From Bacteroidota bacterium (lineage in GTDB: Bacteria; Bacteroidota; Bacteroidia; Bacteroidales; FEN-979), in NCBI GenBank assembly GCA_037128705.1, contig JBAXVX010000009.1, forward strand, positions 42,620 to 106,619: 64,000 bases of DNA, in the 5' to 3' direction. The notes beneath the pieces were generated by a model. It searched no databases. It was given only the letters and a program-made list of their open reading frames with translations, and was not told where the DNA came from. A program made the translations under genes and the position numbers. Below are positions 24,251-25,556 of the stretch, piece after piece (within the stretch, counting starts at the first letter, position 1; each line of letters begins with the position of its first letter).

Positions 24251-25465
24251 TTGATTCCCTTCTCCCCACCCCGCATGGATCAGCGTATCGTCGACGAAGT
24301 CGTCGACACGCTTTATTCCGGGTGGATCACCACCGGCCCGAAAACAAAAAAATTCGAGAAGCTGTTATCCGAATATGGCGGTCAGAAGGTAACCCTTTGT
24401 GTCAGTTCAGCTTCTGCCGGACTTGAGCTTATGCTCCGGTGGTTCGGCGTGAAAGAAGGTGATGAGGTGATCGTCCCGGCTTATACCTATTCGGCTACGG
24501 CCAACGTTGTGGTGCATTGCGGCGCCAAAGTGGTATTCGTGGACGTTGGCGCAGATTTTAACATTTCCCTTGAAGCGATTGAAAAGGCCATCACCCCGCA
24601 AACCAAAGTGATCATGCCGGTGGATATAGCAGGATGGCCCTGCGATTATAATGAGATCAACGCTTTAGTTCAGAGAGCCGATATTCTCGGACTTTTCCAG
24701 CCGGCTTCAAAGGAACAGCATCTTCTAAACCGGATCCTTGTGCTTTCTGACGCCGCCCATTCGATTGGAGGGCAATATCGGGGAAAACGGGTCGGCAATC
24801 TCACAGATGTCACGGTATATTCCTTCCACGCCGTTAAAAACCTCACCACGGCCGAGGGGGGCGCGGTATGCCTGAATCTGCCGGAACCCTTTGATCATAC
24901 CGCCATCTACCGCGACCTGAATGCCAAGTCACTGCATGGACAAACCAAGGATGCCCTGGCAAAAACCCAGATCGGAGGCTGGCGCTATGACATCATTGAA
25001 CCCGGTTACAAATTCAACATGACCGATATCCAGGCCTCCATTGGATTGGTTGAACTGTCGAGGTACGAGGATGACATGCTGGTGAGGCGCAGACAGATTT
25101 TCGACCGGTATTCCGCAGCCTTTTCCCGGCATGCCTGGGCACAGGTTCCCCAATATGAATCGTACGACAAAAAATCATCGTTTCACGTTTTTTTATTGCG
25201 TATCAAAGGTGTGACCGAAACGCAGCGTGACCAGATCATCCGCGAGATCTTCTCGAGGGAAGTGGCGGTAAATGTTCACTTCGTTCCCCTTCCGATGATG
25301 ACCTATTACCACAACCAGGGACACGAGATCAAGGATTACCCTGTTGCATATGATAATTTTTCAAGGGAGATCAGTTTGCCCGTTTATTATGACCTTACCG
25401 ATGAGATGGCCGATACGGTGGTGGCAGCGGTTGTGGAGTCGGTGAAGAGCGTGATCGGGGAATGA
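24251..25465 (+). CDS. DegT/DnrJ/EryC1/StrS-family sugar aminotransferase (PglE-like)
   Basis: N-terminus IPFSPPRMDQRIVDEVVDTLYSGWITTGPKTKKFE, then SFHAVKNLTTAEGG (PLP lysine). The start is a TTG at 24251. The TGA stop lies inside a gaatgat heptad. Confidence 0.85.
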   Translation: MIPFSPPRMDQRIVDEVVDTLYSGWITTGPKTKKFEKLLSEYGGQKVTLCVSSASAGLELMLRWFGVKEGDEVIVPAYTYSATANVVVHCGAKVVFVDVGADFNISLEAIEKAITPQTKVIMPVDIAGWPCDYNEINALVQRADILGLFQPASKEQHLLNRILVLSDAAHSIGGQYRGKRVGNLTDVTVYSFHAVKNLTTAEGGAVCLNLPEPFDHTAIYRDLNAKSLHGQTKDALAKTQIGGWRYDIIEPGYKFNMTDIQASIGLVELSRYEDDMLVRRRQIFDRYSAAFSRHAWAQVPQYESYDKKSSFHVFLLRIKGVTETQRDQIIREIFSREVAVNVHFVPLPMMTYYHNQGHEIKDYPVAYDNFSREISLPVYYDLTDEMADTVVAAVVESVKSVIGE

Positions 25466-25556
25466 TGAATGACAAAAAAACGTGACACGTGACGCGTGAC
25501 GCGTGACGAATGACGAATGACGAATGACGAGTGACGAATTACGAATTACGAATGAT
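25460..25556 (+). repeat. Heptad array filling the whole aminotransferase/sugar-transferase intergenic region
   Basis: The array reads gaatgat gaatgac A7 (acgtgac)x2 (gcgtgac)x2 (gaatgac)x3 gagtgac (gaattac)x2 gaatgat. There are 11 heptads in perfect phase at 25480-25556. The upstream TGA (25463-25465) and the downstream ATG (25552-25554) both lie inside units. Confidence 0.95.

Follow-up and report, generated by a model that had tools for sequence, protein, structure and literature searches.

Heptamer repeats of the TAACTGA type have been described in the intergenic DNA of Beggiatoaceae, cyanobacteria, and a few Bacteroidetes (PMC4679880). We analyzed a 64,000-nt stretch of contig JBAXVX010000009.1 from an uncultured freshwater Bacteroidota (the whole stretch is hereafter called the window), in which nearly the whole spacer between degT, a gene for a sugar aminotransferase, and pglC, a gene for a small phosphoglycosyl transferase, is built of 7-nt units. 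Like the TAACTGA-type repeats, the window repeats are direct tandem repeats that occur in many sets per genome, lie mainly between genes, carry stop codons in the unit, and have a patchy phylogenetic spread, and in both cases the arrays often reach a start codon without a Shine–Dalgarno (SD) sequence (PMC4679880). TAACTGA-type repeats of Bacteroidetes form "assemblages" of several heptamer types per spacer, and contigs break inside them (PMC4679880). By contrast, the window units are RCGTGAC, GARTGAC, GAATTAC, and GATTTAC, with no TAACTGA, and the window arrays lie mostly at gene 3′ ends, at operon-internal junctions, and in convergent spacers, in either orientation. The window repeats also differ in their 35-nt higher-order modules, companion octamers, strain-level copy differences, and an array-free orthologue of the junction with an ATGA overlap. 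The short tandemly repeated repetitive (STRR) sequences of cyanobacteria are heptamer repeats as well. For long simple sequence repeats (LSSRs) of 5 to 11 nt, the account of Mrazek 2007 given in PMC4679880 names heptanucleotides as the commonest class, polymerase slippage as the process, a mostly noncoding location, and lineage-specific abundance. Compared with LSSRs and STRRs, the window has a different kind of host, different units, and a very high density, with heptads making up approximately 10% of its noncoding DNA, or approximately 14% when octamers are included. None of the window units is identical to TAACTGA or to the STRR units CCCCAGT, TTGGTCA, and CAACAGT, and a search of the available papers for the exact tandem strings gave no relevant occurrence. 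The unit size, the non-chance length, the many noncoding arrays, and the recurrent unit families are those of intergenic heptanucleotide repeats, and by these sequence features we assign the window arrays to that already described class, to which their unit sequences are new.

Two other systems are close to this locus in different respects. In Haemophilus influenzae, (ATCTTTC)n repeats in the 5′-untranslated regions of hmw1A and hmw2A form one arm of a long hairpin that is cleaved by RNase III, and more repeats lead to lower expression (PMC12721329). The window array shares with them a 7-nt repeat in the leader of a gene for a surface structure and a unit number that varies between isolates (PMC12721329); the hmw repeats would be the best functional analogue for the idea, put forward in an earlier sequence-only reading of this DNA, that the spacer is a contingency locus for surface glycan synthesis. 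However, the window array is intercistronic, has no significant predicted leader structure, has sister arrays flanking housekeeping genes, and is known from its sequence alone. The other system is the translationally coupled ATGA overlap of stop and start codons in bacterial operons. A relative of the window (contig L141) has such overlaps at both the purC/degT and the degT/pglC junctions, and the end units of the window array carry the same GAATGAT junction, but in the window the stop and start codons are 86 nt apart, so direct coupling of termination and reinitiation would be lost. We consider, with a probability of approximately 0.7, that the degT–pglC spacer is one case of a genome-wide family of intergenic heptanucleotide variable number tandem repeats in an uncultured Bacteroidota lineage of freshwater anoxic zones. 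The array is most likely DNA generated by replication slippage and not a dedicated glycan on/off switch.

The sequence-only reading had described the spacer as built of heptads with the upstream stop and the downstream start embedded in them, and this description was confirmed. The degT gene (24251–25465, + strand) ends in the first of two leading heptads, GAATGAT GAATGAC (25460–25473, + strand), which contains the last degT sense codon GAA and the TGA at 25463–25465. Six A's at 25474–25479, the only bases of the spacer outside any heptad, separate these two units from the main array and offset its phase. From 25480 to 25556, the array reads ACGTGAC ×2, GCGTGAC ×2, GAATGAC ×3, GAGTGAC, GAATTAC ×2, and GAATGAT, i.e., 11 heptads in unbroken phase, and Tandem Repeats Finder (TRF) independently scored it. 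Within the array, a block of A7 followed by CGTGAC ACGTGAC GCGTGAC GCGTGAC (25474–25507, + strand) precedes six AT-rich heptads (GAATGAC ×3, GAGTGAC, and GAATTAC ×2; 25508–25549, + strand) that are common to relatives. The last heptad, GAATGAT (25550–25556, + strand), is identical to the first and holds the pglC start codon ATG at 25552–25554; its string GAATGATCCG is also found in the relatives L126 and L135, and L141 has AAATGATCCG. AU-rich units are therefore proximal to the start codon and GC-rich units distal. The array lies outside every open reading frame (ORF), and its TGA closes all three frames because it recurs every 7 nt. The start of pglC (25552–26151, + strand) at this ATG is backed by the N-terminal sequence MIRFFD, which agrees with that of homologues.

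Comparison with nearly identical genomes showed that the number of units varies. At least 14 public contigs encode a PglC-like protein identical to that of the window. Ten of them (L001–L010) were retrieved, and these come from boreal-lake anoxic-zone metagenomes and two NCBI metagenome-assembled genomes (MAGs). They are 99.5 to 99.9% identical to the window over up to 20.6 kb. All ten have nine units after the A-run, compared with 11 in the window, a difference of −14 nt or exactly two units; the absent segment can be placed in register at 25518–25531 (+ strand; GAATGAC + GAGTGAC), although this placement is ambiguous within the repeat. Every gap in the ten alignments falls within a heptad array and has a length that is a multiple of 7: an additional ACGTGAC at 17563 (+7) brings the number there to four units in two contigs (L002 and L006), and L001 has three downstream modules compared with four in the window (−35 nt). 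The approximately 60 substitution sites are spread over genes, with one (21369) in an array. Arrays thus make up approximately 1.6% of the aligned sequence but contain all the indel events, and are indel hotspots with ordinary substitution rates. In the lineage of a more distant relative (L136), spacers of 94, 87, and 59 nt were found among samples encoding an identical PglC-like protein (P0005), the differences amounting to one and five units. The gain and loss of units anticipated by the sequence-only reading is thus borne out, and length variation is present. Since the ten contigs, which differ by single-nucleotide polymorphisms (SNPs), have the same allele, the degT–pglC array is polymorphic but not hypervariable. 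An assembly artefact was considered and rejected: the arrays are consistent in MEGAHIT, SPAdes, and JGI assemblies of different samples, and the extra units of the window include a unique GAGTGAC variant, which a collapse or expansion error would not make.

The synteny of purC, degT, and pglC with a convergent gene for a type IX secretion system (T9SS) cargo protein is retained down to 70% PglC identity, which allowed the same junction to be followed across species. At 70% identity, L141 has a 4-nt ATGA overlap (…CAAAATGATCCGG…) and no array, and its purC/degT junction is likewise an ATGA overlap. The spacer is 58 nt long with almost no heptads in L142/L143 (73%), and 40 nt long with (GTCATTC)3, which is inverted GAATGAC, in L138–L140 (75%). 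L136 (74%) has GTATGAC (CAATGAC)10 (GAGTGAC)4 and a degenerate tail, and L128/L129 (88%) have GAATGAC CAATGAC TAATTAC (CAATTAC)3 CAATGAC followed by the same tail, approximately nine units altogether. L126/L127/L130, also at 88%, have ten GAATGAC, GAGTGAC, GAATTAC, or GAATTAT units, the last being GAATGAT, and L135 (95%) has seven units from GAGTGAC to GAATGAT in 38 nt. Orthologous arrays thus range over 7, 10, and about 16 units with differing sequences. In the forward-orientation arrays of L126–L130, L135, and L136, as in the window, the first unit also ends degT, as GAATGAC, GAGTGAC, or GTATGAC. Units are more alike within an array than to those of the orthologous array, being C-initial in L128 and L136 and G-initial in L126, L135, and the window; judged from these sequences, this likeness is what concerted evolution through slippage would be expected to produce. 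Several further junctions show the same behavior. Reverse-oriented units (GTAATTC/GTCATTC) number three to four in the purC–degT spacer of L126 and L128; the window has about three of them and L136 two. The spacer between the carboxylase-subunit and AFOR genes has ACGTGAC ×3 in the window, ×4 in L002 and L006, ACGTGAC ×2 plus GCGTGAC ×3 in L128, and none in L126, and an octamer array after a TonB-dependent receptor gene is 70 nt long in the window versus 18 nt in L126. In L142, the purC–degT spacer (630–700) is filled by another heptad family, (GATATTC/AATATTC)n, indicating that different lineages fill the same junction with different units.

The GC-rich part of the spacer appears to have a history of its own. 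The convergent spacer between pglC and the T9SS-cargo gene contains four tandem modules of 29 to 35 nt, each consisting of A6–7, three to four RCGTGAC units, and GG (26134–26268, + strand; TRF period 35, score 210). At this site L001 has three modules, L126 has two, and L128 and L135 have a single one, as against four in the window. The A-run plus ACGTGAC ×2 plus GCGTGAC ×2 block at 25474–25507 is the same as these modules and is absent from the degT–pglC junction of L135 and L126–L130, and we therefore best read it as a copy of a preformed module set into an older GARTGAC/GAATTAC array, rather than as the end of a gradual drift. The order A-run, ACGTGAC, GCGTGAC recurs at 21359, and similar modules of A-run, RCGTGAC, and GG occur in related Bacteroidales MAGs (L031 and L114). 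This bears on the proposal that the units form a series drifting by single substitutions and that the two unit families are one mutational continuum. The units and their phase are as had been listed, but the order of the 11 units is not monotonic. Single steps do interconvert GAGTGAC, GAATGAC, GAATTAC, CAATGAC, and CAATTAC in orthologous arrays; GCGTGAC, GAGTGAC, GAATGAC, GAATTAC, and GATTTAC lie one step apart, and mixed arrays were found in L018, L109, and L124. The part of the continuum that did not stand is the A-run/RCGTGAC block, which looks copied in rather than a product of drift.

The degT–pglC array is far from the only one in the window. We found 15 period-7 segments at 12 loci (17561, 21359, 24227, 25478, 26137 with its 35-nt higher-order period, 31720, 46466, 50914, 52218, 56888, 58223, and 62216), and three octamer arrays in addition, whereas first-order Markov simulations of the window gave a chance expectation of 0.23 period-7 arrays (maximum 2). 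Heptad arrays cover 527 bases, 417 of which are noncoding, even though noncoding DNA amounts to 4241 nt or 6.6% of the window. RCGTGAC occurs at six loci and GAATTAC/GATTTAC at six. Nearly all the arrays sit in short spacers next to housekeeping genes; their neighbours are purC, a carboxylase subunit gene, and genes for AFOR, a Rieske oxygenase, an aldehyde dehydrogenase, ccmB/C/E-like proteins, and UbiD, together with T9SS cargo genes. Arrays occupy short co-directional spacers and four of the five convergent spacers, but only one of the six divergent, promoter-bearing spacers. The orientation of the AT-rich units relative to the flanking genes is mixed, being reverse at 24227 and 52218 and forward at 25508 and 62216. 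Several genes end inside arrays because TGA occurs in all three frames at period 7; these are the Rieske gene (21381), pglC (26151), an RND pump gene (31729), and a gene ending at 62231.

The transcription context is consistent with an array inside an operon. The sequence TATCTTTG at 23231–23238 (+ strand), 19 nt before the purC ATG, matches TAnnTTTG and probably serves as the promoter for a transcript of purC, degT, and pglC. TAnnTTTG is the −7 promoter motif of Bacteroidetes, as known from Bacteroides promoters. No other match was found on the + strand between 23000 and 26200, hence none in the array or between purC and pglC. Because the sole −7 motif precedes purC and L141 has 4-nt overlaps, the sequence suggests that purC, degT, and pglC are cotranscribed with the array inside the message. 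A scan with the sigma-70 consensus, which is ill-suited to Bacteroidota, showed no enrichment, with 18 matches found versus 21 expected. A structured leader like that of hmw was also considered and rejected, since on the + strand the spacer folds with no more stability than its shuffled versions (z = −1.95).

On the slippage explanation, an ancestral ATGA overlap probably expanded into the array, as the comparison of junction sequences suggests. Deleting everything between the first and last units of the window yields …GGGGAATGATCCGC…, the ATGA overlap of the L141 type. The array would have grown by slipped-strand mispairing from a translationally coupled degT/pglC junction with such an overlap (…GAATGATCC…). 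If a 7-mer spanning the junction were duplicated in tandem, the first copy would retain the stop and the last copy the productive start; the embedding of both signals in units would then be accounted for. The intermediate AUGs meet TGA three units on, giving MTNDE* mini-ORFs. The modules 600 bp downstream would be the source from which the A-run, ACGTGAC ×2, and GCGTGAC ×2 block was copied, with TGAC microhomology allowing template switching or ectopic conversion. The array would then be transcribed within the purC-degT-pglC mRNA and tolerated. From the sequence, a translational effect on pglC through leader length, upstream AUGs (the MTNDE* mini-ORFs), or the out-of-frame ORF from AUG 25524 is possible, but such an effect would vary by degrees and be a by-product rather than an evolved on/off switch.

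Several points weigh against this explanation. The ATGA ancestral state is taken from the sequence of one outgroup lineage (L141), and the proposed cotranscript from a promoter motif and synteny. The ten closest contigs differ by SNPs elsewhere and yet carry a single degT–pglC allele, and, as regards rates within a population, the differences in unit number were seen between assembled contigs and gene tables of different samples. The same units occur inverted in L138 and in reverse in the purC–degT spacer of all lineages; arrays in opposite orientation imply exchange between arrays or sequence-specific propagation, and a local seed alone is insufficient. In addition, unlinked loci share the same few unit families, and arrays are retained at given junctions from species to species; a selected cis-element would look like this as well. 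A MITE or transposon insertion, considered as another origin, was rejected, as there are no terminal inverted repeats and no nearby transposase, and the flanking GAATGAC "duplication" is the array itself.

Slippage could have been put to use, making the spacer a phase-variation locus in which heptads gained or lost alter the pglC 5′ leader and switch or tune a surface glycan, as at hmw1A (ATCTTTC)n. Unit number differs between strains, and the array, which fills the pglC leader, runs directly up to the start codon of this gene for a glycan-initiating enzyme, though it is intercistronic rather than promoter-proximal. Changes of units also make or remove upstream AUG or GUG codons, short upstream ORFs, and an out-of-frame ORF overlapping the start, and H. 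influenzae hmw offers a precedent (PMC12721329). However, the arrays are not concentrated at surface genes. They flank purC and the carboxylase, AFOR, Rieske, aldehyde dehydrogenase, ccmB/C/E-like, and UbiD genes as well as T9SS cargo genes, and they lie outside ORFs and promoters. The ten independent contigs of the closest clade show one allele, and the three start-proximal units are the same in the window and in all ten. The array has no promoter motif, the + strand leader hairpin is not significant (z = −1.95), and the gene pair is retained throughout the clade in synteny with purC, as one would expect of a housekeeping step in glycosylation. We regard a phase-variation locus as quite unlikely, and the dedicated surface-glycan contingency switch of the sequence-only reading is left unsupported. 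The heptads might otherwise be a selected cis-element, serving, as RNA or DNA, as a multivalent binding platform for a nucleic-acid-binding protein (S1, Csp-like, or another), or as an unstructured AU-rich leader for SD-independent initiation in Bacteroidota. This would fit the recurrence of the same unit families at unlinked loci and in related MAGs, the retention of arrays at given junctions between species despite the turnover of their sequence, and the placement of AU-rich units next to the start with GC-rich units distal; MacGregor 2015 proposed likewise for the TAACTGA repeats. It fits less well with the inconsistent orientation in the window (reverse at 24227 and 52218, forward at 25480 and 62216) and with the location of most arrays at 3′ ends or in convergent spacers and in one of six divergent spacers. 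L141 and L142 also manage without an array at this junction, and on balance a selected cis-element seems unlikely.

The wider distribution of the units bears on the cis-element and on a related possibility. Among GTDB species representatives, a scan for RCGTGAC repeated three times in tandem gave at least 115 stretches. Among the matches listed, many belong to lake-water Bacteroidales MAGs (Lac Pavin, Loclat, Alinen, ELA, and GWF2_49_14), others are labelled Vulcanimicrobiota, Synergistia, Planctomycetota, or Nitrospirae, and many of the hosts from unrelated phyla come from similar anoxic freshwater habitats. Both the RCGTGAC and the GAATTAC/GATTTAC families occur in lake Bacteroidales MAGs, for example L031, L042, L057, and L114. 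In Vulcanimicrobiota- and Synergistia-labelled MAGs among the same matches, an SD sequence and a start codon follow within 45 nt in 15 of 40 arrays in the GTCACGY sense and in 0 of 40 in the other sense, and this single orientation of (GTCACGY)n just upstream of the SD and start speaks for a cis-element there. The repeat (GTCACGC)n was seen 5 to 20 nt upstream of the SD and start, often after TCCTCGC (L025, L028, L060, L064, L089, L101, L118, and others); by its sequence and position, it looks like a 5′-leader element in unrelated phyla. At related MAG loci, 15 of the 47 RCGTGAC arrays lie directly against the stop codon of a long ORF read in that sense, a proportion partly forced by the unit sequence. 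The orientation bias in these Vulcanimicrobiota- and Synergistia-labelled MAGs makes a functional reading across phyla conceivable, in which the heptads and octamers are the footprint of an active sequence-specific system (a nucleic-acid-binding protein or templated copying) that seeds and maintains RCGTGAC-type arrays at gene boundaries. Such a system is quite unlikely; if real, it would be a cross-phylum, possibly horizontally spread regulatory layer acting post-transcriptionally or on termination. The RCGTGAC block might instead be a structural element, either an intrinsic terminator on the minus strand that blocks antisense transcription into degT or an intercistronic stabilizer or processing site on the + strand. 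Its units are quasi-palindromic (CACGTG and ACGCGT), and a pattern scan found a hairpin followed by a T-run at six minus-strand sites: 25504(–25485), where the block reads as a hairpin and then T6, 26263, 26227, 26198, 26163, and 21386. The sister modules at 21386 and 26263–26144 pass this test just downstream of minus-strand genes, where they may be functional. The module array folds with −65 kcal/mol on the + strand and −55 kcal/mol on the minus strand (z about −6 to −7; + strand z = −7.0), and at least one module is kept at the junction of pglC and the T9SS-cargo gene in four array-bearing relatives (L126, L128, L135, and L136). At 25474–25507, however, there is no minus-strand gene upstream, the + strand has no U-run after 25507, and the fold is no better than shuffles (z = −1.95 and −1.48). 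A single-module hairpin has only five to six pairs, ordinary GC-rich terminators exist elsewhere in the window (10993, 31667, 44121, and 52907), and the block is absent from close relatives, all of which makes a structural role of the block very unlikely.

With slippage as the preferred explanation, the orthologous junctions can be arranged in a natural series that begins with two genes overlapping at ATGA and ends with a repeat spacer of 127 nt. It illustrates a possible route by which heptamer arrays form where genes are coupled, take in the stop and start codons, swap blocks with other loci, and are remodelled from one species to the next. The lineage also provides many comparable loci for asking why the units are heptamers and why unit families recur across phyla. 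Since the arrays break metagenome contigs and mislead start calling, they are relevant to the assembly and annotation of MAGs from freshwater Bacteroidota. Four Logan contigs (L131–L134; SRR8517160-63) with the exact DegT allele of the window all end 38 nt past the stop, in the RCGTGAC block; as they end inside the array, the 11-unit allele is read from the window assembly. Four of the nearly identical contigs (L005, L006, L008, and L009) terminate within the module array at 26134–26268. Such spacers are likely under-represented in public contigs, because short-k assemblies cannot cross the arrays, and a metagenome pattern scan for further alleles gave one contig only (L130). Gene callers placed the degT start at ATG 24275, but it is probably TTG 24251, because (L/M)IPFSPPR read from there matches the ATG-started MIPFSPPR of L141. 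In L128, L136, and L142, the equivalent of the pglC ATG is TTG, and callers ran the gene into the array, giving products of 205 to 210 aa. From these sequences, arrays appear to disturb start-codon calling.

The remaining features concern the proteins and the other arrays. The DegT/PseC-like protein matched Pfam PF01041 (E = 5.6e-94), and the NCBIfam PseC-like match was below cutoff. The 199-aa PglC-like (Bac_transf) protein matched Pfam PF02397 (E = 4.7e-55) and resembles monotopic PglC (Protein Data Bank 8g1n/8e37, E about 3e-20); its C-terminal KKRDT* is encoded by the A-run and the first two heptads of the first downstream module. The window has 48% G+C and content of the Bacteroidota type, including PorP/SprF, Por_Secre_tail cargo, C25 peptidases, and SusC-like receptors. 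A scan of the whole window against Rfam gave 0 matches at the gathering score, and it contains no tRNA or tmRNA genes. Reverse units GAATTAC GAATTAC GGATGAC (24227–24247, minus strand) fill most of the 34-nt purC–degT spacer, and (ACGTGAC)3 (17561–17586, + strand) directly follows the TAA stop of the carboxylase-subunit gene. In the convergent spacer between the Rieske and aldehyde dehydrogenase genes, an A-run with ACGTGAC ×3 and GCGTGAC ×2 (21359–21399, + strand) supplies the Rieske stop codon; the Rieske protein has 334 aa in the window versus 329 to 330 aa in L126 and L128, which lack the array. An RCGTGAC array (58223–58251, + strand) lies in a 46-nt divergent spacer. Relatives show decayed genes in this neighbourhood: in L126 (13563–14904), the two-component system is missing and the RND pump is reduced to ACR_tran fragments, and in L128 (2759–4917) the AFOR gene is split into pieces of 408 and 310 aa. 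The composite array at 62216–62392 (+ strand) begins with GAATTAC/GAATGAC/GATTTAC heptads, with the TGA of the upstream gene in a GAATGAC unit, and continues with 13 octamers (CTTGTCAC/CTTGTTAC). The octamers at 42315–42361, 46496–46554, and 62285–62392 are one family, GTRACARG (reverse complement CYTGTYAC), plus CATTACTC ×3. The order of GATTTAC heptads, CATTAC units, and YTGTYACC octamers was seen twice, at 46466–46554 and 62216–62392, and a 3′ T-N-A-C core is common to all the heptad and octad units.

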